Below, one piece after another: positions 2,712 through 63,864 of a stretch of DNA of 64,000 nt. Each line of letters opens with the position of its first letter. The first letter of the stretch is position 1. The DNA is taken from positions 28,495 to 92,494 of the IMG/VR virus record IMGVR_UViG_3300017917_003339, one strand, 5' to 3'. Source of the stretch: a virus. The notes below the pieces were generated by a model. It worked only from the letters and a program-made list of their open reading frames with translations, was not told where the DNA came from and searched no databases. Made by a program: the position numbers and the translations under genes.

Positions 2712-3694
2712 TTTAAAGCAATCAATTTGTCGGTTACTACTTTTTTCAAGAATGTTTTCATAAGTTCAATATGCTCTGGAACGATTTTATCCTCCAATTT
2801 CCATGTGTATTTGATTGGTGGTACGTGACCGTCGCCAAGACTTGGTTCTTGTTCATGTTCAAACAAATCAGTCAAATCAAAATATTTAACCTCAGCAATA
2901 TCGTCAGAAGCCTCAGGTTTTCCCATTTGGTCCCATTCATAGAACAAGAACAATGTTGTCATGATACCAGAATCTTCTCTCTCATAACGCCAATCCTTGA
3001 TTTGTTGACTGGCAACATACGTTGGTTTAAGGCCAGATAATTTGGTTTCTTCAAACAACTCTCTACGAGCAGCGGTTTCATAACAATCATCCGTTCTGTC
3101 GACAAACCCACCAACAAATCTAAATTTGTCTTCTGCTGGTTTTCTCGCTAAAAGGATTTGTCCGTTATAGTTGGCTACAACAATGTCAACAGTTGGATAA
3201 GTTACTGGTCTTTGTTTTGAAATACCGTAGATGACCCCAGCTCTGAAATCCTCAGAGTCTAACACTTCACTAGAAGCATTTGCTCTAATATCTGTAGCGT
3301 TGTGTGAAGACACTTGGTCTAGCATTTCTGTTTTGTGTTCCCCTGAATAGAAAGGAATAAATGAATCTCTGCTACCATACAAGATAGCTTGTTTTTCAGG
3401 GAATATCGTTGCAAGAGTGTTGTCAACATTTTCAGACCATTTTTCATCGCTTCTATGGTCTGGCAACGCCATAACAATAACCTCTGGGTATCTTTCTTGG
3501 ATTAATTTTCTACGAGTTGCAAAATCCAATGGATTTCTTTTTGTGTTTTGAATTCTAGGGATTCCCAAGAAAACAACAACGTTTGAGTGCATTTCACATA
3601 CTTTGTCTAAAACGCTAGTATGTCCTTCGTGTAAATATGGTGTTTGGAATCTTCCAATCATTACACCAACTTCTGGTTTTTTAATATCTTCCAT
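2708..3694 (-). CDS. bifunctional NMN adenylyltransferase / ADP-ribose pyrophosphatase (NadM-Nudix)
   Basis: IGRFQ..HEGH, RNPLDF, Nudix box GGFVD...AARRELFEET. Confidence 0.9.
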   Translation of the reverse strand: MEDIKKPEVGVMIGRFQTPYLHEGHTSVLDKVCEMHSNVVVFLGIPRIQNTKRNPLDFATRRKLIQERYPEVIVMALPDHRSDEKWSENVDNTLATIFPEKQAILYGSRDSFIPFYSGEHKTEMLDQVSSHNATDIRANASSEVLDSEDFRAGVIYGISKQRPVTYPTVDIVVANYNGQILLARKPAEDKFRFVGGFVDRTDDCYETAARRELFEETKLSGLKPTYVASQQIKDWRYEREDSGIMTTLFLFYEWDQMGKPEASDDIAEVKYFDLTDLFEHEQEPSLGDGHVPPIKYTWKLEDKIVPEHIELMKTFLKKVVTDKLIALK

Positions 3695-3762: not shown

Positions 3763-5124
3763 TTAGTTAATAAAACCCATTTTGGATTTTTCTTTGTCTA
3801 CTTGGCTCATATAGAAGCCTTTGTACGACTCTTTGATAAGACTCACAGTGTCTTCAAGGGTCCAATTTTCATCTTCTTCTGACATTTCAATGATGTTGTC
3901 AGCCAAGTTAGCAATAAACGCACCAGTAATATTTGGTTTTTTACCACCAATGTTTTCGGTTAACGCATCATATACTTCTTTGATTCTCCATTTCTCTGGT
4001 AAGTGGATATCACAAACTTTGATGATTTGTTCTTCGTTCAAGAATGTGTAATCCAAAGTGAAGTTGAAACGACCTGGTCTCTCTGCCGCTTTGTCAACAA
4101 GTCCTTTGTCGTTGGTTGAAGCCAAAAGGCTGATTTTACGTTTCTTAACACCATCAAAGAATGATAAGAATTGACCAAGCATTCTTGTGTAGGACCCGTT
4201 ATCACGAGAACCCAAGTACAAGTCGATGTCGTCCATGATGATTACAGCGCTTTCAAAAATCTCACATGCTTCCATGATTGAATTCAAGTCACCAGTAGTG
4301 GTAAAGTCTGGAATCACAAAGGTAACATCTGGGATAAGACGACGACAGATTTCACGGATACTTTCGGTTTTTCCCGTACCAGGCTCGCCATTCAATAAGT
4401 ATCTAGCACTACCACCTCTGGCCACACGAGTAATAAAGTGTTCAATGTATCTACGTTGAACAGGAGTCATAATTAACTCGTTAGACGCCTCTTTGATGTC
4501 GATTACAGAGATACCCTTAAAACGACCCTCGATAAGAGAAATTTTAATACACTTGCCTTTGTACTCAGAGTTGTTGAACGCAAGAGATTTGATTTTCTTG
4601 AACGCTTCTTCGAACTCTTTGTATTTGAGACCTTTCTTGCTTGTGATGTGGATTTGGTTAATTAAATCACCTCTACCATCTGTAAACATTTTGGTTTGGA
4701 TAAACCACTCATTTTCATCCTCGGCAAACGTACAGTTAAACCAGAAAGAATCAATGTTGTTGAAAGAACCACCAATAGTAATTCTACCGATGTTATCAGT
4801 GTCACCGTACATTCTAACACTGATGTCTTTGTTGTTTTTTTTGACGTATGCGTCATGAAGAAAAGAATTTACGATAGCAAATTCAACAAACGATACTTCT
4901 TCTGTGTGTTCGTTGCTAGTATAGTCATCAAATTCATCTTCATCTAGGTCGATTGGCTTAGATTCTGGGTCCGTATAAGTAATTTCTGGTTCTTGCATGT
5001 TTTTACTTTTTTTATTTGATTTTAAAGAGTTAACAATGTCTTCAAATGGTAACTCTATTGTTTTAATCTTATTTGACATAAAATTTGTTTTAATGGTTAT
5101 TTTAATGGTGGTCAACTGATTCAA
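3763..5124 (-). CDS. AAA+ ATPase (true start probably 5079, MSNKIK)
   Basis: GEPGTGKT, IIMDDID, ASTND, AAERPGRF. Confidence 0.85.
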   Translation of the reverse strand: MNQLTTIKITIKTNFMSNKIKTIELPFEDIVNSLKSNKKSKNMQEPEITYTDPESKPIDLDEDEFDDYTSNEHTEEVSFVEFAIVNSFLHDAYVKKNNKDISVRMYGDTDNIGRITIGGSFNNIDSFWFNCTFAEDENEWFIQTKMFTDGRGDLINQIHITSKKGLKYKEFEEAFKKIKSLAFNNSEYKGKCIKISLIEGRFKGISVIDIKEASNELIMTPVQRRYIEHFITRVARGGSARYLLNGEPGTGKTESIREICRRLIPDVTFVIPDFTTTGDLNSIMEACEIFESAVIIMDDIDLYLGSRDNGSYTRMLGQFLSFFDGVKKRKISLLASTNDKGLVDKAAERPGRFNFTLDYTFLNEEQIIKVCDIHLPEKWRIKEVYDALTENIGGKKPNITGAFIANLADNIIEMSEEDENWTLEDTVSLIKESYKGFYMSQVDKEKSKMGFIN

Positions 5125-5692
5125 TTTCTCTACTTTTCATAATCTCTTTGATTTGAGAATAGCTGACTGGCTTATAATCCCATCCGTTGCAACCCATATC
5201 CAAAACTTTACGTTTGTAATACTCTGGGTTGTTTGGTACCAGACTCTGGTGACAGTGACCGTGCAAATGCCAATCACCGTGGTGTGCTTTGTCCCATGAT
5301 AATATAGGATAGTGCATTATCATTATCCCTTGATATTTTCTTGGGTTATCAGTGTCTAACACCGATAAGTTAATGTAATCGCTTACTGTTTCAAATCTGC
5401 CTAGTTTGCGTATGTCTTTTTCATTGTCATGATTACCCAATACGAAGTGTATCTTACCGTTTAGCTGGTCTACAATCGCCTTTGCAGCACCGCCAGAGCG
5501 GTCGAAGCATAAGTCACCCATGTAGATTACTGTATCGTTTACACCAACCAATTCGTTCCAATTCTCTATGAGCGTATGGTCCATCTCTTGCGAGTTGGCG
5601 AATGGTCGGTTATCGTATTTAATAACGTTAGTATGACAAAAATGATAATCAGACGCAAACCAAACGTTTTGGTTATCTATTTTTAATCTCAT
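5102..5692 (-). CDS. calcineurin-like metallophosphoesterase
   Basis: SDYHFCH, MGD, GNHD, HGHCH. Confidence 0.9.
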   Translation of the reverse strand: MRLKIDNQNVWFASDYHFCHTNVIKYDNRPFANSQEMDHTLIENWNELVGVNDTVIYMGDLCFDRSGGAAKAIVDQLNGKIHFVLGNHDNEKDIRKLGRFETVSDYINLSVLDTDNPRKYQGIMIMHYPILSWDKAHHGDWHLHGHCHQSLVPNNPEYYKRKVLDMGCNGWDYKPVSYSQIKEIMKSREIESVDHH

Positions 5693-6673: not shown

Positions 6674-7065
6674 TACACTTCTGCAATTATAGTAGAAACT
6701 AGCTTCATATCAGCTAACCCTTTATATTCTTTGCTAAACAAGCCCATGATTTGACCTGCGTTTGTAAAACCGCTATTTTTGTAACCACTGATGATTTCTC
6801 TGATTTGAGCTTCATCCATCAATTGTGGTAAATACGGTTTTAAGTATTCCAACTCAGTCAAAGATTGTTCGTTGTCAGTTTGTTTAAGCGATTTTTCCAA
6901 TCTACGTAGAATAGTCAATGTGTTACCGTCATTGCTAACCACATTTGGTCGCATTTCTTCATTTTGGATTTCACTCTTTAAGAGACCCAAAAAATTCTTT
7001 CTATCCATGTCCTTGGCTTTAAACGCTTCGATAAAATCTGCGTTAATTCTTTCTTTAATTGTCAT
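6673..7065 (-). CDS. GatB/YqeY domain protein
   Basis: AFKAKD, ELEYLKPYLPQLM, GQIMG...KGLAD. Confidence 0.85.
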   Translation of the reverse strand: MTIKERINADFIEAFKAKDMDRKNFLGLLKSEIQNEEMRPNVVSNDGNTLTILRRLEKSLKQTDNEQSLTELEYLKPYLPQLMDEAQIREIISGYKNSGFTNAGQIMGLFSKEYKGLADMKLVSTIIAEV

Positions 7066-7070
7066 GATAA

Positions 7071-7409
7071 TTAATGTTTGTTTATGAAATAATAATGATA
7101 AGCGTTGTCTCCGTCAACAGCATAATACGCTAAAGTTAACTCACCTTTTTGTACTCTATCGGCTATGTGTTTTCTTTCTTCGATATCAGCATTGGATGCG
7201 ACTCTTATCGTTTTAAAATCTGTTTTTTTTCTTTTTTCTTCTTTTGGTTTTGGTTCCTCTATAGAAACCTCAACGGGTTTAACTTCCTCAACTTTAGGTT
7301 TTGTAACTCTAGTCTTAACGGGTTTTGGTTCCTCAACTTTCTCCCTTTTTTTAGGAACTATGGGTTTAACCACTGGTTTAAGTTCTGCTTTTTTTCTTTC
7401 CTTAGCCAT
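7071..7409 (-). CDS. hypothetical K/E/P-rich protein
   Basis: ORF. Confidence 0.6.
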   Translation of the reverse strand: MAKERKKAELKPVVKPIVPKKREKVEEPKPVKTRVTKPKVEEVKPVEVSIEEPKPKEEKRKKTDFKTIRVASNADIEERKHIADRVQKGELTLAYYAVDGDNAYHYYFINKH

Positions 7410-7436
7410 ATGTTACAAAGTTACTAAATTAAAATG

Positions 7437-7943
7437 TTAAAAACAATCTTTTAGTTGTTTTTTTTCGTATAATTCAAATCTGAATTTAAGACCATTTTCT
7501 TCGTGCATCTCACTACCTTCAACAAGACACCAATCTTCTGAGTTTAACCCTTCCAAAAAGACATCACCTTCAATCTCGTGGTGTATTTGAGTCAAATACA
7601 ATCTGTGAGCGTATTTAAACGCTTCTCTGTACAATTCAGCACCACCAATTATGAAAACTTGGTCATGGCTATTTTCGTTTGATGTTAGGATTTGTTCTAA
7701 GTCATTTGACACAATAGCACCGTTGGCCACATAATTTTCATCTCTAGTCATCACAATGTTCTTACGATTAGGCAAAGGTCTGAATTTTTCTGGTATACTC
7801 TCCCAACACTTACGACCCATAACCACAGTGTGTCCCTTGGTTGTGTCTTTAAAGTATTTCATGTCTGTTGGCAAATGCCATGGCAAATCGTTATCTTTAC
7901 CGATAACTAAATTAGTTGACGCTGCTACGATTATGTTTATCAT
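7437..7943 (-). CDS. folA: dihydrofolate reductase
   Basis: IGKDNDLPWHLPTDMKYFK, VMGRK.WESI, PLPNRKNIV, IIGGAELY. Confidence 0.97.
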   Translation of the reverse strand: MINIIVAASTNLVIGKDNDLPWHLPTDMKYFKDTTKGHTVVMGRKCWESIPEKFRPLPNRKNIVMTRDENYVANGAIVSNDLEQILTSNENSHDQVFIIGGAELYREAFKYAHRLYLTQIHHEIEGDVFLEGLNSEDWCLVEGSEMHEENGLKFRFELYEKKQLKDCF

Positions 7944-10069: not shown

Positions 10070-11523
10070 TAATATGTGTATTTAAACCACGTTTCATAAT
10101 TTTTACCTAACGCATCCAGCGCTAACTCAACTTCTTTTAAACATTCGTTGATACCGCCACCGACGAGAACTATATTGTTAAGTCTATCTATAAAATCCAT
10201 AAGGTCTGGAATGTTAATACAATCATCAGAATCTTCCATAAGTTCTCTTATGTTCTCTGAACCATATTCATCAACAAACGCCCCCCAAAAATCCTCATCT
10301 AGCTCCCTAGAATCGTTTATGTTGTTATCACGCATGAATTTAACTAAGTTTACTAGTTCTTCATCATCACCACCACGGTCCATACAATTCCTAAAGAAGG
10401 CATAACCCTTGTCGTATAAAGTAGCTTCATAAGCTATATCTTCATCAAGCCCATTTTCAAAAAGCCAATTTCTATACTCACCTTCTGATACCATACCTAA
10501 AGTGTCATAACCATTGTATAAGAATGTAAGACCAGCTAACTCATCTATGTGTTGGTTGATATATTGAAACAATTTATATTGCATACCACCCATATATGGT
10601 GCGTACTCTGGTTGAACATCTACCACGACTAAGTGTCTACCAACAGCGCTTTCTTTAATAAGGTCAGATTCTTTAAGTGTTTTTTGTTGTAATTTGTCTA
10701 CCCCTCTATTTAATAACTTTTCCCTTACAGAGATATAATAGGTGTATAGTCGTTTAATTAAACGAGTAGCCATTTTAGGTTTAATAACTTTAAACCCTTC
10801 AAATTTTTGTTCAAATTCGTTTTTTACCCTATCAAAAGGCACCATATCAAAAGAACCATCGCTTTTTTTAAAGATTAATCTTAGATTTTTAATTGTTTCT
10901 GTGAATCTAGCGTTTATTTCGTGTGGTAACCTTAAATAATCTTTGTATTGTTGTGGTGTGATTGGAGCGTTTTCATCTGGATAATCAGCTCTATATTTTG
11001 CAACAGTCTTATTAGCCACATATTTTCTTTTGCTTCTCCAAGCATCATAAGCATGTTGTAATTCATGTGCAACCGTATCACGCATATCATTGGTTATAAT
11101 ATCTTTATAAACATTATCAACCATTTGTTCAATTGATTCTTGGGTGATAGGTCCTGATAACTTTGTTAACACATGTCTTTCTAACGATTCTTTAATTTGT
11201 TGTGGAGACAACCTTAATATTAACAAACCATCATCATCTGAATATGGTTTGAATTTCCCTGCGGTGCTATCATCACCTAATGACCTACTAAATTTAACAA
11301 CTAATTTAAAATTACTTAAAAAATCATTTATTTTAGTGTATATAGCTTTGGTTTTATCAAATATATTAAAAATAGATGTAAAAACGTTTAAAGCACTTCT
11401 TTGTCGTATTGCAAGATTAACAATATTCCTAATAGCCGCTTTTAAGACATCAGCGCTCAACACACTGATATCCGTAATTGTTTCAAAATCTTCTTTTAAT
11501 AGTTTTTTGATTAAATCTCTCAT
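10069..11523 (-). CDS. putative late/virion protein with HExxH domain and cysteine-hydrolase-like C-terminal domain
   Basis: MRDLIKKLLKE N-terminus, VAHELQHAYD, LVVVDVQ. Confidence 0.55.
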   Translation of the reverse strand: MRDLIKKLLKEDFETITDISVLSADVLKAAIRNIVNLAIRQRSALNVFTSIFNIFDKTKAIYTKINDFLSNFKLVVKFSRSLGDDSTAGKFKPYSDDDGLLILRLSPQQIKESLERHVLTKLSGPITQESIEQMVDNVYKDIITNDMRDTVAHELQHAYDAWRSKRKYVANKTVAKYRADYPDENAPITPQQYKDYLRLPHEINARFTETIKNLRLIFKKSDGSFDMVPFDRVKNEFEQKFEGFKVIKPKMATRLIKRLYTYYISVREKLLNRGVDKLQQKTLKESDLIKESAVGRHLVVVDVQPEYAPYMGGMQYKLFQYINQHIDELAGLTFLYNGYDTLGMVSEGEYRNWLFENGLDEDIAYEATLYDKGYAFFRNCMDRGGDDEELVNLVKFMRDNNINDSRELDEDFWGAFVDEYGSENIRELMEDSDDCINIPDLMDFIDRLNNIVLVGGGINECLKEVELALDALGKNYETWFKYTY

Positions 11524-11697
11524 TTGATTATTTTAATTTACTTAGAATTTCTTCGTTTTGTCTGATTAATTTAATTCTTTTTACAATGTTACCTCTGTTA
11601 GGTTTTGCTTTGGGTTTTTCTTTTCTTCTTGCCATAATATTGTTTTTACTATAAATATCTGGCCTAAATAAAAAAACCCATCATATGATGGGTTTAG

Positions 11698-11822
11698 TGG
11701 AGGGGGCGGGAATCGAACCACGCGTTTTTCAAATTTACAGTTTGCTTGATAATAAATTTATTTGCTGCAAACATTCTTTAACAGAAGCAGAATGTGTGTT
11801 TAACCAACATTTCAACCCCTCC
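11698..11822 (-). tRNA. tRNA-Tyr(GUA)-like RNA with inserted helix+CAGCA module
   Basis: Acceptor GGAGGGG/CCCCTCC, loop CTGTAAA, T-loop TTCGATT; ~50-nt insertion after the D arm. Confidence 0.6.
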
Positions 11823-11830
11823 TTGTTTTA

Positions 11831-11945
11831 GAGCCTAGCAGAGGACTCGAACCTCTCCTTATTCACCTAACGCAGCTTGTACAATGCCACTTGGTTCTCT
11901 TTCTGCTGGGATTTGCAGCGTGCTCCCTGATACACTAACTAGGCA
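11831..11945 (-). ncRNA. tRNA-like RNA with expanded anticodon region
   Basis: Acceptor GCCTAGT/GCTAGGC, D arm, T arm AGAGG-TTCGAGT-CCTCT; no 7-nt anticodon loop. Confidence 0.5.
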
Positions 11946-11963
11946 AATTCATGAAGCTTTTTC

Positions 11964-12050
11964 ACACCTGACAGGATTCGAACCTGCAATCTGGGGCTAT
12001 CTAAAACGCAAGTGCTGGGTCCCCATGTGATACCCTTTCACTACAAGCAT
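11964..12050 (-). ncRNA. tRNA-like RNA with expanded anticodon loop
   Basis: D arm GTGA..TCAC, stem TGGGG/CCCCA enclosing ~24 nt, T arm GCAGG-TTCGAAT-CCTGT. Confidence 0.5.
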
Positions 12051-12271
12051 AATACTCACTTCAAGACTACTCAGTACACGTACTAACCATACCTACGCAT
12101 CTTTTTACTCATTTACCATTCTTTACCGCTTTTTCCCAAAATACCTTATCATGCCCTTCCCATGATTTGGTTTTTAAAGCCTTTGCGTTTGATATATTCT
12201 GGAATACTCACAGCACGCCTTGATAAACTTTCAATCAACTCTCAATATGCTTTTCAACATACCTTTCATAG

Positions 12272-12303
12272 AGCGGATGACGGGATTCGAACCCGCGACC
12301 TCT
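12272..12303 (-). pseudogene. 3' half of a disrupted tRNA (Gly-type acceptor)
   Basis: GAGGTC-GCGGG-TTCGAAT-CCCGT-CATCCGC-T; complements the 5' half at 12838-12867. Confidence 0.8.
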
Positions 12304-12304
12304 G

Positions 12305-12376
12305 AGCGACTAACCAGAATCGAACTGGCATCCTCGACTTGGCAAGCCGATGCACTAACCGTTGTGCTATAGTCGC
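12305..12376 (-). tRNA. tRNA-Gly(GCC)
   Basis: Cloverleaf, loop TTGCCAA. Confidence 0.9.
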
Positions 12377-12377
12377 G

Positions 12378-12788
12378 TTATTTTTTTTCTTGTCTCTTTA
12401 CCCTACGTAATTCTCTACCATTACCTTTATTCAGCGCACCAAATGTTGGTGTTAGAGAATGACAATTAGGGCAAAGTAACTTTAAATTATCCAAAGAATT
12501 ATTATCAGAATTCCCATCAATATGTTCTAATTGTATTGGAACGTTATTGGTGATTGGGTTTCTTTCATTCCAACCACATTCCATACATTTTTCACCATAT
12601 TTGAAAATTAAATAATTTCGATAATTATTGATATAAAGAGTGGTATCACCTTTTTCAATATTTTCAAATATTAATTTTCTTTTATGTTCACCTTGGCAGT
12701 TATTATTACAGTATACATTCCTATTAGGGATTTTACCACCGCAATTTAAACATTCTTTTTCTAATTTTTCTCTTTCTCTCACGGACAA
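12378..12788 (-). CDS. HNH homing endonuclease (start approximate; ORF-track start 12863 lies inside a tRNA half)
   Basis: CxxC, LEHIDGNSDNNSLDNLKLLCPNCH. Confidence 0.88.
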   Translation of the reverse strand: MSVREREKLEKECLNCGGKIPNRNVYCNNNCQGEHKRKLIFENIEKGDTTLYINNYRNYLIFKYGEKCMECGWNERNPITNNVPIQLEHIDGNSDNNSLDNLKLLCPNCHSLTPTFGALNKGNGRELRRVKRQEKK

Positions 12789-12837
12789 CCTTATTTTATT
12801 ATAAATATCGGTCGTCCGTGAAAAAGTTAAAAAAAAT

Positions 12838-12867
12838 TTGGCGCTCAACCAGCCGAGCTCCATCCGC
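12838..12867 (-). pseudogene. 5' half of a disrupted tRNA (Gly-type acceptor)
   Basis: GCGGATG-GA-GCTC-GGCTGGTT-GAGC-G-CCA. Confidence 0.8.
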
Positions 12868-12947
12868 AGTTTGTGGCACTCTCGCCACCCGTCACCTTAT
12901 CCTGTGTTGTTTAATTTCGGACGTTTAAGGTCACACCGACGTACTTC

Positions 12948-13754
12948 TTACCAATACCACCATTTAGCTTCGTTTCTTGGTCTGTATTTGAACTCGTAGA
13001 AGTCTTGACTCCAAGCACTTGCACAAGCCCAATTGGTCCAATCACTATCGGTGATAAATTCTTTTTCAGACATCTCAACACCTTGTTCTTTATACCACTC
13101 ATAAGAGTCGTTAATGAAATCAGTGTTAAGGTTCTTTTGAAGAGCCATTTTATCATTTCTTCTGTTGGCTTTTTTGTATCTTTTCAAAAATCTAGAATAA
13201 CCGCTGTCGTTCCATGGTTTCATTCTAACTTCAATAGCCCAGATTTGGTCTTTGATAAAAGCTCTTTCACTTTCCAACTCACCATCTACCACTTTGCGGT
13301 GAGTGATGTAGCTGTTTTTGATTTTAGTAACCAAGTAGTGTTGTGGGATGTAAGGAACATAGTAACTATATTCTTGTCCCCAAACAAACTCGGTTCTTTT
13401 GTGAAGATACTCTTGAACCCATGGTAAAAAACCATCGTATTCTTTTTGAGTGACTCTTCTAAAGTATGGTCTTTTGTCCCACACTTTACCTTTTTTGTTT
13501 TTGATATAGAACTCTTTGGTTCTAGACCAAGTTTCAACTGCAAAGTTGTCAATAAAGTATTGGTATAACCAAGCTACTCTATCTTCTCGTTTTGCAACAT
13601 CTTCTCTTAGAGTTAAGAAAGCGTTGTAACCGTGATGTACTGGTTTTTCAAGCTCAACATAACCTAAATTTCTGATGGCTTGGATAAGCTCATCTTCTCT
13701 TTCGCGTAACGCTAATAAGCGTTTGTAATCTTTGTGTTTTGTGTTTTTACTCAT
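12948..13754 (-). CDS. hypothetical protein
   Basis: 268 aa ORF. Confidence 0.7.
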   Translation of the reverse strand: MSKNTKHKDYKRLLALREREDELIQAIRNLGYVELEKPVHHGYNAFLTLREDVAKREDRVAWLYQYFIDNFAVETWSRTKEFYIKNKKGKVWDKRPYFRRVTQKEYDGFLPWVQEYLHKRTEFVWGQEYSYYVPYIPQHYLVTKIKNSYITHRKVVDGELESERAFIKDQIWAIEVRMKPWNDSGYSRFLKRYKKANRRNDKMALQKNLNTDFINDSYEWYKEQGVEMSEKEFITDSDWTNWACASAWSQDFYEFKYRPRNEAKWWYW

Positions 13755-13818
13755 TGTTCTCGGTGTTGGTAATTAGTACCTTACCACCTCGAACCTTTAA
13801 AAATTGCCATCATAGTTT

Positions 13819-14127
13819 TTATTTTAAATCAATTTTACCAACTATTGTAAAACCCTTAGGTTTCCATCTTTCTTTTTCTTTGTCACTTATTGTGTTGCCG
13901 TTTTTACCGACATGAAATTTATGACAAGACTTGCATTTATACGCCACCACTTTGAATTTTCTTTCAGGTAGTGCGTTCACACTCTTAGCGTGCTTGATAG
14001 CTTGCTCAAGTGTGTCGAAGGCTTTTTTAGGTTTATCAACCAATTGACCGTTTATTCTACTTACTACTTGAGTTGTGCAATCCATTATGAATTTTCTTTG
14101 ATGTATCTTCTGATTACCGCTTCGCAA
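13819..14127 (-). CDS. hypothetical protein with CxxC-H motif
   Basis: AYKCKSCHKFHVG. Confidence 0.6.
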   Translation of the reverse strand: MRSGNQKIHQRKFIMDCTTQVVSRINGQLVDKPKKAFDTLEQAIKHAKSVNALPERKFKVVAYKCKSCHKFHVGKNGNTISDKEKERWKPKGFTIVGKIDLK

Positions 14128-14312
14128 TCACGCTCAACATCTGGTTGTTTTCTTTTTTTCTTTTGACTTTCCCATTTGTCTTTCTCAACTTCTTTGAAAA
14201 ACAAATCATCAAAAATTTCTACATAACCAATAATTTTATCTTGATAAAGAATATATGTTAAATTGTTGGTTGAATAGAATTTTGGTACGATTCTGAAATC
14301 TTCTCTATTCAT
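14085..14312 (-). CDS. hypothetical protein
   Basis: ORF downstream of promoter at ~14331. Confidence 0.6.
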   Translation of the reverse strand: MNREDFRIVPKFYSTNNLTYILYQDKIIGYVEIFDDLFFKEVEKDKWESQKKKRKQPDVERDCEAVIRRYIKENS

Positions 14313-14351
14313 AATATTTACGTTTTATGATGCAAATATACGAATTATTTT

Positions 14352-14645
14352 TTAAATACCAAAATTTTCTTCACCCATTTTTTTTATTAACACAGCTTCA
14401 GAAATAGCATGTTTAGCATCTTCTAAATCCTTGGCAAATGTAACAACCTCACCATCCCATAGGGTTATTTTAATATAACCATCTTCACCCTTTTCAATGA
14501 CAGTGTTTTTCATATCTTCAACCATCTTAGCCAATCGTCTATTTCTACTTTCCCAGTCTCTGAGAAATCTTTTCTTTCCTTCTTCGGTCATAAAACGACC
14601 AGTAAAACTTAACCCTTTCATAATACTTAAATTTAATTTGAGCAC
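14352..14645 (-). CDS. hypothetical protein
   Basis: ORF; likely start MKGLSF. Confidence 0.55.
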   Translation of the reverse strand: MLKLNLSIMKGLSFTGRFMTEEGKKRFLRDWESRNRRLAKMVEDMKNTVIEKGEDGYIKITLWDGEVVTFAKDLEDAKHAISEAVLIKKMGEENFGI

Positions 14646-14713
14646 TAGACGGGCCTCGAACCCATGACCTCTCCCATACCAAGGGAGTGTTCTGCCTACT
14701 GAACTACAAGTGC
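14641..14713 (-). tRNA. tRNA-Thr(GGU)
   Basis: CTCCC-TTGGTAT-GGGAG. Confidence 0.9.
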
Positions 14714-14719
14714 ATTTAG

Positions 14720-14793
14720 AGCCTCCGACAGGAATCGAACCTGCGACCTTCTCCTTACAAGGGAGTTGCTCTGGCCTGCTGAGCTACGGAGGC
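14720..14793 (-). tRNA. tRNA-Thr(UGU)
   Basis: CTCC-CTTGTAA-GGAG. Confidence 0.92.
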
Positions 14794-14857
14794 ATAACGG
14801 CCTATAACGTTTGCCATTCGGTGCATTTTGTTTCTCGCAGAACACTTACTGCTTGTG

Positions 14858-14940
14858 TGAGAGTAGTAGGATTCGAACCTACTCAGGCATAGCCAACGGT
14901 TTTACAGACCGCCCCAGCTCTCCAACTCTGGCGTACTCCC
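14858..14940 (-). tRNA. tRNA-Tyr(GUA)
   Basis: GCGGT-CTGTAAA-ACCGT, long V arm. Confidence 0.92.
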
Positions 14941-14949
14941 AATATTTAG

Positions 14950-15028
14950 TGGGCCTAGTAGGAATCGAACCTACAAGAATTAACACGATTTTACAGACCG
15001 CTGAGCTCACCACCTGCTCAATAGACCC
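14950..15028 (-). tRNA. tRNA-Tyr(GUA)
   Basis: GCGGT-CTGTAAA-ATCGT. Confidence 0.85.
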
Positions 15029-15097
15029 AAGTTCAGGGTGGTGTATCGGTTTCAAATTAAAAGTTTGATGATAATGATTGCTGAAACCACCCTTTAG

Positions 15098-15169
15098 TTG
15101 GAGGATAGGGACTCGAACCCTAAAAACGACAGTCAAAGTGTCGTATGTTGCCAATTACATCATCCTCCA
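15098..15169 (-). tRNA. tRNA-Gln(UUG)
   Basis: CGACA-CTTTGAC-TGTCG. Confidence 0.9.
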
Positions 15170-15178
15170 ATATGTTAG

Positions 15179-15260
15179 TTGGGAAAGAGGGACTCGAACC
15201 CCCATGTACTTCGCGTCTTCTGGCTCAAAACCAGAGGTGTTACCATTACACCATTTCCCA
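15179..15260 (-). tRNA. tRNA-Gln(UUG) with extended variable region
   Basis: TCTGG-TTTTGAG-CCAGA. Confidence 0.85.
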
Positions 15261-15316
15261 AAATTTCTAATTCTATGCTTGTCCTCACGCAACTCTATGA
15301 ATTAGTAACAGTCTCA
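15261..15316 (-). repeat. tRNA-spacer structured repeat, copy 1
   Basis: GAGACTGTTA-CTAATTC-ATAG...GCATA-GAATTAG-AAATTT. Confidence 0.8.
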
Positions 15317-15323
15317 TCAACTG

Positions 15324-15396
15324 AGCGGAAGACGGGACTCGAACCCGCAACCCCCGACTTGGAAGGACGGTGCTCTACCAATTGAGCTACTTCCGC
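15324..15396 (-). tRNA. tRNA-Gly(UCC)
   Basis: loop CTTCCAA, GCGGAAG/CTTCCGC. Confidence 0.92.
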
Positions 15397-15455
15397 AAAT
15401 TTTTAATTCTATGCAGACACTTACAAATGGGCCCCTATGAATTAATAACAGTCTC
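15397..15455 (-). repeat. tRNA-spacer structured repeat, copy 2
   Basis: GAGACTGTTA-TTAATTC-ATAG...GCATA-GAATTAA-AAATTT. Confidence 0.8.
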
Positions 15456-15461
15456 TTCTCG

Positions 15462-15537
15462 TCGGGATGACTGGACTCGAACCAGCATGATGTCCTGCTC
15501 CCAAAGCAGGCGACTTAACCAATTAGTCCACATCCCG
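15462..15537 (-). tRNA. tRNA-Pro(UGG)
   Basis: CCTGC-TTTGGGA-GCAGG. Confidence 0.9.
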
Positions 15538-16074
15538 TTTAAATTTTTCTACATATTCTAAAACCGTTTCTTCTATTAAATTTCTATACCTACTATGCCA
15601 ATAAGCATGATGTGTTGCACATAGAGGTATTAAATTCTCAGGTTTATTATTGTTTCTATCCCCATCTAAATGGTGAACATCTAACAATAATTTTTCATCA
15701 CAAACAACACATTTATGTTCGTGGTGTAAGAAACATGTTGACCTGTATGCATGTTCTTTCCAGTTTGGGTTTTTATCACCACTTCTAAAGAAAGAGTTTG
15801 CACAAGCATGAGAACATGTAATTTTTTCTCTTTTTGAACCTGATTGAGTTTCAAATTCATTCTCACAAACAGGACAAATTTTAATTATTCGTTCATATTT
15901 GAGAAAATGTTTTTTCTTTCTATTAGGTTCAAATTTTAAACCATTTATTTCAAATAACGCATCTAACTTTTTATACCCAGCACCATTATTGCTGATATTT
16001 AACCTTTTACAAGCTTCATTTTTAGAACTACATTCTAGTATAATTTTTTCTAATTCTTCTTTTTCGATATTCAT
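15523..16074 (-). CDS. HNH homing endonuclease
   Basis: DVHHLDGDRNNNKPENLIPLCATHH; stop codon lies inside the downstream tRNA-Pro. Confidence 0.88.
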   Translation of the reverse strand: MNIEKEELEKIILECSSKNEACKRLNISNNGAGYKKLDALFEINGLKFEPNRKKKHFLKYERIIKICPVCENEFETQSGSKREKITCSHACANSFFRSGDKNPNWKEHAYRSTCFLHHEHKCVVCDEKLLLDVHHLDGDRNNNKPENLIPLCATHHAYWHSRYRNLIEETVLEYVEKFKRDVD

Positions 16075-16137
16075 AACTTATTTTTATTATAAATATCATC
16101 AAATGTCGAAAAAATCACTTTTGGGAAATTTTATTTT

Positions 16138-16181
16138 CTGCATCCCAAATGCAGCGGATTAGCCAACTTTCCCACTACCCG
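16138..16181 (-). pseudogene. truncated tRNA-Pro(UGG), 5' part only
   Basis: CGGGTAG..D arm..CTGCA-TTTGGGA-TGCAG, followed by AT-rich HNH upstream region; no T arm. Confidence 0.8.
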
Positions 16182-16190
16182 TAATATTTG

Positions 16191-16264
16191 TACCCCCGAA
16201 GGGACTCGAACCCATGACCCCCCGCTTAAAAGGCGGGTGCTCTAACCAACTGAGCTACGAAGGC
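16191..16264 (-). tRNA. tRNA-Lys(UUU)
   Basis: CCCGC-CTTTTAA-GCGGG. Confidence 0.92.
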
Positions 16265-16269
16265 ATTTG

Positions 16270-16342
16270 TTCCCCCGACGGGCCTCGAACCCGCTACCCA
16301 CTGGTTAAAAGCCAGTTGCCCGTCCACATGAGCTTCGAAGGA
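16270..16342 (-). tRNA. tRNA-Lys(UUU)
   Basis: ACTGG-CTTTTAA-CCAGT. Confidence 0.88.
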
Positions 16343-16359
16343 ATTTATATTTCTATTTG

Positions 16360-16431
16360 TTCCCCCGCCCAGAGTCGAACTGGATTCCGTAGATTAAAAG
16401 TCTACTGCATCACCACCAATGCTTCGAGGGA
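16360..16431 (-). tRNA. tRNA-Lys(UUU)
   Basis: GTAGA-CTTTTAA-TCTAC. Confidence 0.85.
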
Positions 16432-16515
16432 ATATGTATCTTGCCCCTCAAAACATTGAGGGAATTACTGTTTACTCTTTATCTTCTTTATTGTTTTCAT
16501 TGTTTTTATTTTATT

Positions 16516-16592
16516 TGGCCTCCCAGAAGGATTCGAACCTTCCATCCATAAGCCCCCAATGGGCTGCGCTTTTCCTACTAAGCTATGGGACG
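16516..16592 (-). tRNA. degenerate tRNA, possibly Gln(UUG)-derived
   Basis: Good D and T arms; AGCC-CATTGGG-GGCT loop lacks U33. Confidence 0.5.
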
Positions 16593-16607
16593 CATATTTT
16601 ATTTTTG

Positions 16608-16702
16608 TCTGGTAAACAGGATTCGAACCTGTGGTAGACACTACCTTTGTGCCCACATCGGATTCCAAGTCCGACCGCTTAAACCATCTCGCGCATTACC
16701 AG
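16608..16702 (-). tRNA. tRNA-Pro(UGG) with long variable arm
   Basis: TCGGA-CTTGGAA-TCCGA; acceptor CTGGTAA/TTACCAG. Confidence 0.75.
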
Positions 16703-16716
16703 TTATTTTGTTGCAT

Positions 16717-16753
16717 AAAAAAACCCAGTTTAGATTTTACTCTGAACTGGGTC
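16717..16753 (-). terminator. attenuator terminator of tRNA operon 1
   Basis: GACCCAGTTCAGA-GTAAAA-TCTAAACTGGG-T7. Confidence 0.9.
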
Positions 16754-16777
16754 TATAATTTGTACTTGCGTACTTTA

Positions 16778-16879
16778 TTATATTGTTGTCAAGTCTGAAA
16801 ACATGACATACCCAGTCGACCTGAACGGTTTCCCGCCCTTAGGTTGATATTGCGTTTGATATGTTTTAGTTGTTTTCAT
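16778..16879 (-). CDS. leader peptide 1 (K/T/Y/Q/P/G sensor): MKTTKTYQTQYQPKGGKPFRSTGYVMFSDLTTI
   Basis: Manual translation; lies between promoter and terminator; contains antiterminator ACTGGGT at 16810-16816. Confidence 0.88.
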   Translation of the reverse strand: MKTTKTYQTQYQPKGGKPFRSTGYVMFSDLTTI

Positions 16880-16954
16880 AACTTTGTTTTTTGTTTTGTT
16901 TATAAATATGTTGTTTTTTAAAAAAATTCTGTTTTTGTTTATTAATTTTTACAA

Positions 16955-16990
16955 TGCAAAGATACTAACTATTATAATACAAGTCAAGTT
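16955..16990 (-). promoter_or_regulatory. promoter of tRNA operon 1
   Basis: ACTTGACT...GTATCTTTGCA (TAnnTTTG -7 box); same arrangement at all four leaders. Confidence 0.75.
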
Positions 16991-17021
16991 TTTTTGTAAA
17001 AAAATTTAAAATATTTTATAA

Positions 17022-18594: not shown

Positions 18595-18657
18595 ATCATA
18601 TTGTTACCCAACATCTTATTTTATTATAAATATACTGAAATATTTATTTTTGTCAAC

Positions 18658-25308: not shown

Positions 25309-25536
25309 TTGAATGGATAAACATTTCCAAGTGTTTACCCTAGCAGTTTTTACGCACTAGCACGGCTAAAAAACTACAAAAAACCTACTCGATGTTTTAT
25401 GCTTGGACAAGGGGCTGCACGAGCAACAACCCAGTTGTTCTGGTACAACTTTAAACCCCAAACTTGAGTCGTTGGCACTGAGTCAATAGTTCCGACACAA
25501 AGATTCCTAGGTTTTTGTGTGTTTCCTATTTAGTCG

Positions 25537-25613
25537 TGGGGGAAGCTGGACTCGAACCAGCGACCTTTCGCTCTCCTAAGACAGCGAACATCTGCCAACT
25601 GAAATATTCCCCC
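25537..25613 (-). ncRNA. tRNA-like RNA with 10-nt anticodon loop
   Basis: TTCGCT-GTCTTAGGAG-AGCGAA; good acceptor and T arm. Confidence 0.55.
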
Positions 25614-29791: not shown

Positions 29792-29823
29792 GCTAATTTT
29801 TTAATATAAATATCACAAAAAAA

Positions 29824-31085: not shown

Positions 31086-31106
31086 AATACTATTTTTTAT
31101 ATTTTG

Positions 31107-31179
31107 TGGAGCTGACGGGAGTTGAACCCGCATCCTCTACCTTGCAAAGGTAGCGCTCAGCCAGTTGAGCTACAGCCCC
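31107..31179 (-). tRNA. tRNA-Ala(UGC)
   Basis: CTACC-TTTGCAA-GGTAG; G3:U70. Confidence 0.92.
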
Positions 31180-31180
31180 A

Positions 31181-31235
31181 AAATTTCTAATTCTACGCTT
31201 ACAATATGTAGTTCTATGAATTAGTAACAGTCTCA
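31181..31235 (-). repeat. tRNA-spacer structured repeat, copy 3
   Basis: GAGACTGTTA-CTAATTC-ATAG...GCGTA-GAATTAG-AAATTT. Confidence 0.8.
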
Positions 31236-31241
31236 TCTGTG

Positions 31242-31362
31242 CGGACGCAGTGGGACTCGAACCCACAGCTTTTTCGTGACAGGAAAATTAACTAATGCTG
31301 CTGGAGATAACCTTGTCAGGTTATGACTTGTTTTTAACATGTTACCCTTACACCATACGTCC
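31242..31362 (-). tRNA. tRNA-Asp(GUC) with inserted helix+CAGCA module
   Basis: GGACGTA/TGCGTCC, TTTTC-CTGTCAC-GAAAA; ~50-nt insertion after the D arm. Confidence 0.7.
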
Positions 31363-31500
31363 AAAAATACCTTTACATTTCAAAGGTTAAGCAGGTTTAG
31401 TTGCGGACTTTCCTTCCAGTCAGTGCTTCTTTTTCCAGAGATTGCCTCTATACGCACGTTATCTGACAATTTTAACACGAAGCGACCGTGTTAGCAATCG

Positions 31501-31574
31501 TGGAGACTGCGGGAGTCGAACCCGCGACCTTCTGCGTGCAAGGCAGACGCTCTAGCCAGCTGAGCTAAGTCCCC
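31501..31574 (-). tRNA. tRNA-Ala(UGC)
   Basis: TCTGC-CTTGCAC-GCAGA. Confidence 0.93.
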
Positions 31575-31584
31575 AAATATTTTA

Positions 31585-31655
31585 GAAGCGCAATTGGTTT
31601 CGAACCAATGTTTCCAGCTACGCGCCAGCGTCCTAAGCCCCTAGACGATACACTT
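31585..31655 (-). pseudogene. degenerate tRNA (Glu/Asp-type D arm, collapsed anticodon loop)
   Basis: TCGTCTAGGGGCTTAGGAC D arm, ATTGG-TTCGAAA-CCAAT T arm. Confidence 0.5.
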
Positions 31656-31757
31656 TAACTACTCTCAATACAACTGCCATCATATATTGAGTAGAATGGC
31701 CTTGTTACTTCACCTTTCAGTTGGCAGACCTACTTGGTTTTTCACTCACCTTTTTTG

Positions 31758-31831
31758 CCGAGATACTGGGATTCGAACCCAGTTCGCACGCCGTGACAGG
31801 GCGGCATCCTTCGCCAGTGGACCTTACCTCG
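31758..31831 (-). tRNA. tRNA-Asp(GUC)
   Basis: CGCC-CTGTCAC-GGCG. Confidence 0.8.
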
Positions 31832-31837
31832 AATCTA

Positions 31838-31914
31838 TGGCGGTCTGTACGGGACTCGAACCCGTGACCTTCGCCGTGACAGGGCGACATTGTAACCAAC
31901 TCTACTAACAGACC
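31838..31914 (-). tRNA. tRNA-Asp(GUC)
   Basis: TCGCC-CTGTCAC-GGCGA, encoded CCA. Confidence 0.92.
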
Positions 31915-31920
31915 AAATAT

Positions 31921-31996
31921 TGGTAGTCTGTACGGGATTCGAACCCGTGTTTTACCCGTGAAAGGGGCACGTCCTGACCAACTAGACGAACAGACC
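31921..31996 (-). tRNA. tRNA-Glu(UUC)
   Basis: GCCC-CTTTCAC-GGGT, encoded CCA. Confidence 0.92.
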
Positions 31997-32030
31997 ATTT
32001 AGATTTTTGATTACTGGAATCTTAACCAGA

Positions 32031-32669
32031 TTATTTTCTCCCTTTTAACCAACCTTCGTTTAAATAAGTTTCAAGGTCTTCTTTTTTAATTTTTTTGTTA
32101 GTACCATCCTTGGTTATCCAACATGTACCATATTGACTGTTTGTTTCACCAGTCCCAGTACCTTTTCTTTTTTCTGATATTAATTGTTTAGTTTCTTCCG
32201 AATGACATTTACCTTCAAAAGTATTATAATTAATTTTACCTAATTTATGTGCTTTTTTTAATGTTTCAGATGATATTTCTGTATGTTTTTTAAAAAACTC
32301 TTCATCAATTTTTAATTTGTCAGAAAACGCTTTTCCACCAGCCTTAATACATTTCTCCATATGTTCTTTATTAGCAAAACCACCTTGACCACCTTCTTTT
32401 AAATTCATACATAAACCATCAGATATCAACTCTTTTGTTATAATTTCAATCTCTCTAAGAACTAATTTTTCTCTTGTTGGTAAAAATTCTAATATTTCTT
32501 TTGTATGGTTTTCAACACCATATTTCCTAATACTATATCTTAATATCTTACCACTTCCCATGTAACCGTCATCTAATTTCGTAGTTGAATGCATTCCAAT
32601 ATACCATCTTCCTGTTACATTACATGTTGTTTTATATATGTAATGTATATTTGCTTTTTTTCTTGCCAT
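32031..32669 (-). CDS. GIY-YIG (Seg-like) homing endonuclease with NUMOD3
   Basis: YIYKTT..WYIGMH..YMGSG; HSEETKQLISE. Confidence 0.9.
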   Translation of the reverse strand: MARKKANIHYIYKTTCNVTGRWYIGMHSTTKLDDGYMGSGKILRYSIRKYGVENHTKEILEFLPTREKLVLREIEIITKELISDGLCMNLKEGGQGGFANKEHMEKCIKAGGKAFSDKLKIDEEFFKKHTEISSETLKKAHKLGKINYNTFEGKCHSEETKQLISEKRKGTGTGETNSQYGTCWITKDGTNKKIKKEDLETYLNEGWLKGRK

Positions 32670-32726
32670 TTCAGTTTATCTTTAATAATAAATATCAAGA
32701 TAAACTGAAAAGTACAAAAAAGTTTA

Positions 32727-32805
32727 TGGTAGCCTCGACGGGGCTCGAACCCGCATTGCACACCTTGAAAGGATGGCTTCCTAGTCCGATTTAGAAGACA
32801 AGGCC
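32727..32805 (-). tRNA. tRNA-Glu(UUC)
   Basis: CATC-CTTTCAA-GGTG, encoded CCA. Confidence 0.85.
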
Positions 32806-32862
32806 ATGTTTATCGTTTCGGTTACCCCCACGCAGTGCACTTACGCAGGGACCTACTCCTTG

Positions 32863-33026
32863 TAGGAATGAGTGGATTCGAACCACTGACCTTCTCCCTT
32901 ATGATGGGAGTCGTTCTGAATGTGTTTTTTCAACCAACTTAATGGTAATTCATTAAGCACACACCCCGATTGTTGTTATTTACCATCTCCTTAAGGAGCC
33001 AATCAGACCGCTGAACGTACATTCCT
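32863..33026 (-). tRNA. tRNA(CAU)-like RNA with ~90-nt insertion in the D loop
   Basis: AGGAATG/CATTCCT, D stem CGTTC/GAACG, CTCCC-ATCATAA-GGGAG, canonical T arm. Confidence 0.65.
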
Positions 33027-33028
33027 AG

Positions 33029-33101
33029 TGGTACCTCCCAGATTCGAACTGGGGACACCTGCATCTTCAGTGCAGTGCTCTACCAACTGAGCTAAGGTAC
33101 C
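33029..33101 (-). tRNA. tRNA-Phe(GAA)
   Basis: CTGCA-CTGAAGA-TGCAG. Confidence 0.93.
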
Positions 33102-33104
33102 TTT

Positions 33105-33165
33105 TAATTTCGTTGCAAAGATACAACTTATTTTTTAATCTCCAAATTTTCAATGAACTTTTTTT
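33105..33165 (-). promoter_or_regulatory. internal promoter cassette, near-identical to 55065-55125
   Basis: GTTGTATCTTTGCAACG within a ~60-nt repeat. Confidence 0.7.
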
Positions 33166-33180
33166 ATTTTTTTTTTCTTG

Positions 33181-33251: not shown

Positions 33252-33264
33252 AATTTTTGTACAT

Positions 33265-33295
33265 AAAAAAAGCCTGACTTATTAGGGTCAGGCTT
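33265..33295 (-). terminator. attenuator terminator of tRNA operon 2
   Basis: AAGCCTGAC-CCTAATAA-GTCAGGC-T7. Confidence 0.9.
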
Positions 33296-63408: not shown

Positions 63409-63864
63409 TTAACATCTTTTTTTACCACAATATGTTTCTGTTTGAGAATGACAATTAGCACACAAAAACCTTAAGTTTTCTAATCTATTGTCATTATTAA
63501 CACCATTTATATGGTCTAACTGTAATGAAAGAGGTTTACCCATCCATTCACCTAAGTTTCCGCAAGTTTTACATTTGTATTCTAATTTTTCTTCTTGTAC
63601 TAACCTAATTTTTAATCTAAAATTATTTGTGTATTCAGAATTTTCTACTAATATATCTTCCAACGGTACTCTATGGTTTCCACAAACCCATCTATTTGAG
63701 GTTATGGTTAACCCCTCACTGGTGATTCTTTCTTTTATTCTTTTAAAATTGTAACCAGTTTTGGTATAGTTTAGTTTTTGACAAATCTCACCAATACTAG
63801 TTGACGTATCAACTAAATATTTAATTTGTTCAGATGTTTGTTCGTCTATTTTTGTTTTTTTCAT
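63409..63864 (-). CDS. HNH homing endonuclease
   Basis: LQLDHINGVNNDNRLENLRFLCANCHSQT. Confidence 0.9.
   Translation of the reverse strand: MKKTKIDEQTSEQIKYLVDTSTSIGEICQKLNYTKTGYNFKRIKERITSEGLTITSNRWVCGNHRVPLEDILVENSEYTNNFRLKIRLVQEEKLEYKCKTCGNLGEWMGKPLSLQLDHINGVNNDNRLENLRFLCANCHSQTETYCGKKRC

Follow-up and report, generated by a model that had tools for sequence, protein, structure and literature searches.

A probable HNH homing-endonuclease cassette with a replacement tRNA-Gly(GCC), nested inside a broken tRNA-Gly(GCC) gene of a giant-phage fragment

Homing endonucleases persist in useful genes either within self-splicing introns and inteins or by residing beside their target, and examples of free-standing nuclease genes lodged within a host gene with no intron are mobE in nrdA of Aeh1 and mobA with gene 60 in T4. 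Here, we describe a locus within a 64,000-nucleotide (nt) stretch of virus DNA (bases 28495-92494 of the 92.5-kb IMG/VR virus record IMGVR_UViG_3300017917_003339, which is metagenome-derived; this whole stretch is hereafter called the window), in which a small HNH nuclease gene and an intact tRNA-Gly(GCC) gene lie between the two halves of another tRNA-Gly(GCC) gene. The completeness of the record was estimated at 26%, and the window is therefore a fragment of a giant phage. The arrangement is probably the outcome of an insertion in which a cassette with a free-standing HNH homing endonuclease entered the phage's own tRNA-Gly(GCC) gene at the anticodon arm, carrying a substitute for the gene it interrupted.

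In the literature searched, no description of a nuclease-plus-replacement-tRNA cassette nested in its target was found, the nearest systems being SegB, the HNH open reading frames (ORFs) of T5 and synthetic rescue drives. SegB of T4 and T6 is a free-standing GIY-YIG homing endonuclease encoded in a tRNA gene cluster (PMC2330249; PMC13096335), which cuts the tRNA genes of relatives where SegB is absent and drags neighbouring tRNA genes along (PMC2330249). The ribosome site of SegB is covered by a hairpin, and because the downstream tRNA gene follows the ORF immediately, tRNA processing trims the mRNA (PMC2330249); moreover, SegB can generate repeated tRNA-plus-nuclease units (PMC13096335). The cassette resembles SegB in being a selfish nuclease gene in a phage tRNA array, with a hairpin over the start region and an ORF abutting a tRNA gene. 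However, SegB is a GIY-YIG and not an HNH enzyme, it cuts the T-arm or 3' end of tRNA genes, its gene lies between intact tRNA genes, and no same-anticodon replacement nested in its target has been described. The tRNA region of T5 contains the HNH ORFs F-TflI, F-TflII and F-TflIV (named in PMC2330249). T5-like tRNA-region HNH genes share superfamily and habitat with the window gene and show detectable DNA and protein similarity to it, although identity is only about 36-44%; in the T5-like phage SpoonbillGilly the HNH gene is located between intact tRNA-Ala and tRNA-Leu genes and no gene is split.

Endonucleases of introns and inteins, like the cassette, lie inside the gene that they target, and the flanking pieces can act as homology arms; there, splicing restores the host gene, whereas in the cassette nothing is spliced, the target is dead and a second, divergent gene would supply the function. 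Similarly, in mobE/nrdA (mobE is mentioned in PMC2330249 and PMC2790892) and in mobA/gene 60 the pieces stay functional and their products reassemble, whereas the tRNA halves flanking the cassette, being without an anticodon, are useless. The same logic as that of the cassette is found in synthetic HomeR and cleave-and-rescue drives (PMC7968924; PMC10592828), where a nuclease disrupts a needed gene and a recoded, resistant copy is supplied at the site. Those drives are built with engineered Cas9 in diploid animals or plants, whereas the cassette would employ a natural, protein-guided phage nuclease whose activity is predicted. The best reading of the locus is a natural "home-and-rescue"-like element, with cleavage, cargo immunity and biased inheritance as its predicted properties, and engineers would have reached the same logic independently.

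The window contains 46 tRNA genes (ARAGORN), which are on the minus strand throughout and have ORFs interspersed among them, several of these being homing-endonuclease genes. At the cassette locus every feature is on the minus strand as well, and the features are the following:

12868..12947, minus strand: conserved upstream flank between a gene for 268 amino acids (aa) and the tRNA gene, with the 35-nt anchor and a small hairpin
12841..12867, minus strand: nt 1-27 of the resident type-1 tRNA-Gly(GCC), kept as its 5' half, 27/27 nt identical to the related contigs L005, L078, L080 and L082
12305..12840, minus strand: inserted cassette of 536 bp, which replaces nt 28-40 (13 nt) and is absent from 11 related contigs
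12780..12820, minus strand: hairpin predicted by folding, with 11-bp arms (12820-12810 and 12790-12780) and a 19-nt loop
12795..12808, minus strand: promoter-like motif ATATTTATAATAAA in the hairpin loop, recognized by its recurrence in the window
12378..12782, minus strand: HNH homing-endonuclease gene, 134 aa, with GTG start and TAA stop (12380-12378), assigned by PHROG HNH families
12305..12376, minus strand: intact cargo tRNA-Gly(GCC) (ARAGORN; Rfam tRNA 66.3 bits, E 3e-13)
12272..12304, minus strand: nt 41-73 of the resident tRNA-Gly(GCC), kept as its 3' half, identical in L005, L078, L080, L081 and L082

The 5' half (12867-12841) comprises the acceptor strand GCGGATG, GA, the D arm (GCTC/GAGC) and then G26 and C27, and the 3' half (12304-12272) comprises CAG as the last three nt of the anticodon stem, the variable loop, the T arm (GCGGG/CCCGT), CATCCGC and U73. 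All acceptor pairs between the halves are Watson-Crick (7/7). Each half is present once in the window as compared to 0.00 expected in shuffles, and the 3' half is Gly-type since it is identical to the window's own tRNA-Gly(UCC) at 26/29 positions. Together, the halves hold 27 + 33 = 60 of the 73 nt of the gene and the missing nt 28-40 include the anticodon, so that the resident tRNA-Gly(GCC) gene must be regarded as dead; ARAGORN and Rfam both detect the inner tRNA-Gly(GCC) (12376-12305) as the sole tRNA at the locus. The first-pass annotation of this DNA, which was made from the letters alone, had noticed two halves pairing as a Gly-type acceptor with U73, and the pairing holds with shifted boundaries: the 5' half ends at 12841 and not at 12838, the three nt 12840-12838 belonging to the insert, and the 3' half starts at 12304 and not at 12303. 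The C at 12304 can be assigned either to the cargo (C74) or to the target (C41), which leaves the insert boundary at ±1 nt. The same annotation took the anticodon arm to be replaced and the target tRNA to be destroyed. Indeed, nt 28-40 are lost and no anticodon is left in the remaining halves, although C27 and C41-G43 of the arm are kept; the motif (called late-type there and described here as promoter-like), the HNH gene and the intact divergent tRNA-Gly(GCC) that had been placed between the halves were all located (12808-12795, 12782-12378 and 12376-12305).

The locus was compared across 12 genomes, namely the window and 11 related contigs (L005, L026 and L075-L083), of which L005 was found by a pattern joining both acceptor-side pieces and nine metagenome contigs by the 35-nt anchor in the upstream flank. 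In L005, the two pieces of 27 nt and 33 nt belong to one unbroken 73-nt tRNA-Gly(GCC) gene (ARAGORN; Rfam 62.8 bits) directly downstream of a homolog of the window's 268-aa gene, with 13 nt in place of the 536 of the window. BLAST aligned the window with L005 from 14088 to 12841 at 84% and then from 12304 to 12269 at 100% over 36 nt, and the alignment of the window with empty-site relatives ends at 12841. An uninterrupted GCGGATG...CATCCGC tRNA in relatives, on which the first-pass interpretation had been made to depend, is thus found at the syntenic site of five contigs: L005, L078, L080 and L082 and, with one change, L081. The upstream and downstream flanks of L078, L080, L081 and L082 are homologous to those of the window (83-91% identical). 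The closest relative by its flanks, L083 (95.6-97.4%), is collinear with the window on both sides and has a different intact tRNA-Gly(GCC) at the site, and other Gly tRNA genes are found there in L026, L076/L077 and L075/L079. A Gly tRNA is therefore present at the site in 12/12 genomes and interrupted in the window only, with at least five alleles among the close relatives (four GCC types and one UCC) whose flanks stay homologous; the nuclease is polymorphic at this locus, the window being filled and 11/11 related contigs being empty. Since relatives hold an uninterrupted gene at the site, the window state is evidently a 536-bp insertion with a 13-nt loss. The halves are identical at 27/27 and 36/36 nt while the flanks are 83-91% identical, as expected if the insertion is recent and the gene had been under selection up to that event.

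The insert starts with C-AAAT and a T run, like the spacer behind most tRNAs of the phage, and contains, in order, the promoter-like motif in its hairpin, the HNH gene and the intact tRNA-Gly(GCC), with 58 nt of non-coding space ahead of the ORF and 1 nt behind it. The cargo starts 1 nt past the HNH stop and reaches, with its discriminator, directly to the 3' half. Its identity is 67% with the broken resident gene and 90% with the tRNA-Gly(GCC) beside an orthologous HNH gene in the viral contig L066. Moreover, the cargo carries G1-C72, C2-G71, G3-C70, U73 and C35-C36, which we take to be the bacterial Gly identity set, and as far as the sequence tells it can substitute for the broken tRNA-Gly(GCC). 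The first-pass view of a cassette carrying a substitute is in accordance with this high-scoring cargo tRNA and with the other nested cases described below, which likewise carry a same-anticodon tRNA wherever both cargo and target can be named. Cargo and target differ at four of the five anticodon-stem pairs and also in the D stem. The hexamer GAGCGC is found at the junction of D stem and anticodon stem, just 5' of the break, in both mapped targets and is absent from 12/12 HNH-linked tRNAs, which may be a weak hint to the recognition site. The cargo-type tRNA was found in 35 viral contigs, mostly without a nuclease, and only L066 pairs it with an orthologous short HNH, in the opposite order.

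The 134-aa ORF is matched by PHROG HNH families at E 3e-16 to 1e-15 and contains 15/15 family-invariant residues (14 to 16 relatives compared), with the motifs C66-x2-C69, H87-x-D89-G90, N94, N99 and C104-P-N-C-H108 (two CxxC pairs). These include the catalytic His and Asn residues and the zinc-binding Cys pairs of the beta-beta-alpha-metal motif, and by them the protein qualifies as an HNH (His-Me finger) endonuclease; among solved structures, no significant sequence match was found. Many relatives have a Myb-like N-terminal module, which this short form lacks; short forms are also present in L016 and L066. In the alignment, its GTG start coincides with the ATG at which the L066 ortholog begins. 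A 161-aa open frame from the ATG at 12863 inside the 5' half was considered as well and is probably accidental, since the conserved hairpin and the L066 start favour the GTG at 12782.

The 3' arm of the hairpin at the start of the gene holds an AAGG purine run together with the GTG start codon. The minimum free energy of 12845-12760 was -31.7 kcal/mol (z = -8.87), and 0/200 shuffles folded as well; an equivalent hairpin with other stem letters is present 5' of the orthologous HNH in L066 and L006. The motif in the loop, ATATTTATAATAAA, has 12 matches in the window at ≤1 mismatch as compared to 0.49 expected, six of them being exact copies, and 9/12 have the orientation of the coding strand and precede start codons by 8-25 nt. 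Besides the cassette HNH gene, it precedes three other endonuclease genes (HNH at 16074, HNH at 63864 and an endonuclease at about 56130), and it is probably the phage's own promoter type. An arrangement of hairpin with promoter and of an ORF abutting a tRNA gene is known from T4 nucleases, SegB included (PMC2330249). By analogy with T4 (PMC2330249), the hairpin would form in read-through transcripts of the tRNA array and mask the start codon, transcripts started at the loop motif would be without the 5' arm and hence translatable, and RNase P, in processing the cargo tRNA, would leave an mRNA that stops 1 nt past the stop codon. As a side observation, ATATTTATAWTAAA occurs 12 times in the window (0.49 expected; minus strand, e.g., 16083-16096, 18620-18633, 29800-29813, 56141-56154 and 63873-63886), with its end 8-25 nt ahead of start codons and often with ACTTTTT about 12 nt upstream, and at endonuclease genes the motif is embedded in hairpins covering the start codon.

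Viral-contig searches for relatives of the nuclease yielded 20 and later 80 HNH loci, from at least 397 relatives detected. Nearly all first-search loci contain tRNA genes (19/20, the exception being L022), the great majority in tRNA arrays, and HNH homologs were found in isolates of T5-like phages, Streptomyces phages and cyanophages and in several giant phages; in T5-like, Streptomyces, cyanophage and other isolates the gene lies within a tRNA region. The HNH gene adjoins tRNA-Gly(GCC) in L006-L013, in L066 and in Streptomyces phage Jollison. In L066, an ortholog of the short HNH (55% identity) with the same 5' leader hairpin lies downstream of the cargo-like tRNA-Gly(GCC). Because of this ortholog with its 90%-identical tRNA and of the other adjacent pairs, this nuclease and this tRNA type appear to be old companions whose order differs. 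The best homolog in an isolate, from Enterococcus phage iF6, was rejected as a parallel, being on the opposite strand to its tRNAs and not nested.

The nested design was sought in other phages with a split-tRNA finder, which looks for a T arm with its 3' acceptor strand and for the complement with a D arm 100-3000 nt upstream. It recovered the window case as well as Val, Ala, Thr and Lys cases in other uncultured phages. In L018, an HNH gene of the same family and a tRNA-Val(UAC) lie inside a tRNA gene that has lost nt 29-40, which is the same site as in the window. An exact match of both halves gave no intact allele, and the 5' half alone gave six copies: the target is intact as tRNA-Val(UAC) in six other contigs (L085-L089 and L091). 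The same Val cassette (86% identical to that of L018) is present in L150 in a different Val allele with different junctions, and because of this it seems to behave as expected of a moving unit. In L118, the break in a tRNA-Ala(UGC) falls precisely at nt 34/35, and the cargo is tRNA-Ala(UGC); L106 and L136 each carry a Thr cargo, that of L106 being the same-anticodon Thr(UGU) with the insertion after nt 36. A second case in L018 combines a DUF559-type nuclease with a tRNA-Lys(UUU) cargo in a target that is probably Lys(UUU), for which an intact allele was not found. The nested layout is also present in L107, L109 and L116, where ARAGORN saw no cargo. Target and cargo share the anticodon in every nested case where both can be named. 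L018 is a marine phage contig in which the two nested cassettes occupy 764-1678 (Lys, DUF559/PD-(D/E)XK-type) and 2809-3477 (Val, HNH), each with a T4-like TATAAATA motif, and about 170 nt of GC-richer sequence are located between the Lys cargo and the 3' half; in the related contig L150, the Val cassette with its different allele is at 1339-2003. Some candidates of the finder were discarded, namely a split tRNA in L028 (SpoonbillGilly), whose 3' end belongs to an intact tRNA-Ser, one in L163, whose 3' end is inside an Rfam-called tRNA, and pairs of neighbouring paralogous tRNAs in the window, which were rejected on inspection.

Several other origins of the window arrangement have to be weighed. 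With permissive Rfam thresholds, neither a group I nor a group II intron was detected at 11000-17000 of the window (E up to 1) or in 26 related loci, nor an intron in any nested relative locus. Since no ribozyme was found and the anticodon is gone, splicing could not restore the gene and the insert is not an intron, as the first-pass annotation had recognized in calling the cassette intronless. It might still descend from a self-splicing group I intron that once encoded the HNH protein in the anticodon loop, lost its ribozyme and later captured a second tRNA gene as compensation. L118 (nt 34/35) and L106 (after nt 36) would be in line with such a history, being precise anticodon-loop insertions with no exon loss at positions typical of tRNA introns. 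Nevertheless, we consider a decayed intron quite improbable in view of the absence of Rfam intron hits from the window and the 26 related loci, of the 58 nt and 1 nt of non-coding space that leave no room for a ribozyme, of the 13 missing exon nt including the anticodon, and of the intron-free intact gene in close relatives. An integrase-borne tRNA island was also rejected, as the insert contains only the HNH ORF and a tRNA and lies at an anticodon-arm site with a deletion and no flanking repeat, and so was an archaeal-type split or permuted tRNA, as the halves hold 60/73 nt and no anticodon loop.

Passive array shuffling, in which a foreign tRNA-array fragment would have been pasted in by illegitimate recombination with the nuclease as a passenger, is unlikely in our view, although it agrees with the almost complete lack of junction microhomology, with an insert that equals one array unit from the post-tRNA spacer (C-AAAT) to the cargo 3' end, and with a hot-spot locus of at least five tRNA-Gly alleles and variable downstream content. 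It would not lead one to expect that the independent Val case, whose nuclease is of the same HNH family, is broken at the same place in the tRNA (nt 28/29-40), that the cargo anticodon equals that of the broken gene in every nameable case, or that nested cases always hold a nuclease gene, from two different nuclease families; moreover, there is one split tRNA among the 46 of the window, and it is precisely the one holding the HNH gene. As the virus record is metagenome-derived, an assembly artefact, i.e., a chimera joined at tRNA-like repeats, might be suspected, but this is the least credible of the alternatives and very improbable indeed: it needs two in-register joins at non-repeated positions within one tRNA gene, while both flanks are collinear with L083 at 96-97% identity, the cassette bears the phage's own promoter-like motif with its six exact copies in the window, and the same design is present in independent assemblies (L018 and L019 from different samples, and likewise L150, L118 and L106).

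The homing-cassette reading itself has to accommodate a number of observations that weigh against it. In L066 and L006-L013 the HNH gene lies downstream of tRNA-Gly(GCC), so that the order in the window needs an extra rearrangement; SegB-driven tandem repeats of tRNA-plus-nuclease units (PMC13096335) suggest how "tRNA then nuclease" could be turned into "nuclease then tRNA". Protein-pattern scans of viral contigs gave no near-identical donor, the best HNH being at 68% (L006) and that of L066 at 55%, and the filled allele is present in 1/12 genomes at the locus, namely the window alone. The phage also has a tRNA-Gly(UCC) and the host its own tRNAs, so that the need for a rescue copy is an assumption. 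The junctions share at most 1-2 nt, and Pfam HNH (PF01844) scored 21.2 bits, 0.2 under the cut-off of 21.4. Finally, GAGCGC is also present in two intact tRNAs of the window, Ala (31106-31179) and Val (34971-35048); the hexamer alone is therefore not the recognition site, which must extend further.

For the homing cassette, we propose that during co-infection the HNH protein would cut or nick those tRNA-Gly(GCC) alleles that have no cassette, within the anticodon stem-loop or close to it, that the break would be resected, which would account for the 13 nt lost, and that repair would copy the cassette, the first event with little or no homology and later ones with the tRNA halves and outer flanks as homology arms. 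The cargo, differing at the cut site, would escape cutting and keep the decoding of GGC/GGU supplied; in this proposal, the element would therefore cost the phage little. Both ends of the window's cassette coincide exactly with successive tRNA 3' ends, and a unit cut out or defined there, instead of gap repair, seems the less likely origin. Cassette ends set by RNA processing or an RNA-mediated process were considered and rejected, as the right end in L018 and L150 lies 4-7 nt or about 170 nt past the cargo and the coincidence in the window is not general. Taken together with the nested cases in other phages, a tentative generalization is that such cassettes might form a distinct and widespread class of phage mobile elements, consisting of a nuclease and a cleavage-resistant copy of the tRNA destroyed, with the dead halves as homology arms; if so, repeated rounds of homing would lead to divergent same-anticodon duplicates and multi-allelic tRNA loci in giant-phage arrays. 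The cassette would represent a third way to occupy a gene: it would sit inside its target, kill it and supply a divergent, presumably uncuttable copy. If the nuclease is active, this could explain the turnover of phage tRNA genes, the same-anticodon duplicates in giant-phage arrays and tRNA fragments that are ignored by annotation pipelines or misread as introns. In practical terms, such cassettes may be a source of compact natural nucleases recognizing tRNA genes (134 aa here, with target and cargo being 73-nt genes).

The surroundings of the site show further variation. A small hairpin with a GAGAG-type loop (12868-12895) lies a few bases upstream of the Gly tRNA and is also present in L005, L026, L075, L076 and L078. 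By eye, its stems vary yet stay complementary (GTGGC/GCCAC, ATGC/GCAT, CCTG/CAGG and GTG/CAC), which points to a signal conserved at the RNA or DNA level. Immediately behind the Gly tRNA, L026, L005 and the window differ in content: L026 has an ORF at 4547-5600 with HVGH and KMSS motifs resembling those of class-I aminoacyl-tRNA synthetases (by eye), L005 has a DUF3223 protein at 6908-7624, and the window has tRNA-like elements there. Such elements, missed by ARAGORN, were found on the minus strand at 11963-12050, 11832-11944, 11700-11822 and 31242-31362, of which the first three are kept in L080 and L083 at 83-97%. One of the four scores 38 bits with Rfam tRNA and has an anticodon-arm loop of about 24 nt, two (112 and 120 nt) have perfect acceptor, D and T arms with a long insert, and one has the form GGAGGGG...CCCCTCCA over about 120 nt, followed by a terminator hairpin.

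Four further homing-endonuclease genes are located in the arrays of the window (15526-16074, 32034-32669, 55483-56220 and 63412-63864), two of them HNH and two phrog_314, the HNH genes being:

15526..16074, minus strand: HNH gene in the tRNA array
63412..63864, minus strand: HNH gene in the tRNA array

The endonuclease gene at 55483-56220 is flanked by two full tRNA-His(GUG) genes (56254-56180 and 55474-55402) and may be a non-nested version of the nuclease-plus-spare-tRNA theme. Tandem same-anticodon tRNAs are abundant in the arrays at 14640-16702, 31106-35451 and 53378-56415 (Thr, Tyr, Gln, Lys x3, Ala, Asp, Phe, Arg, Asn x3, Ile and His), and frequently one member of a set exceeds the usual length (Gln, 83 nt; Pro, 96 nt; Ile, 85 nt). 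The window also has an unassignable tRNA at 25536-25613 and a tRNA with a UCA anticodon at 32727-32805, which might read TGA. Finally, five related tRNA-array loci (L163 754-1217, L018 4007-4178, L150 2827-2993, L009 5454-5528 and L010 6292-6366) contain a GOLLD RNA enclosing a tRNA (200.8 bits), manA RNA motifs and tRNAs with the amber-reading CUA anticodon.

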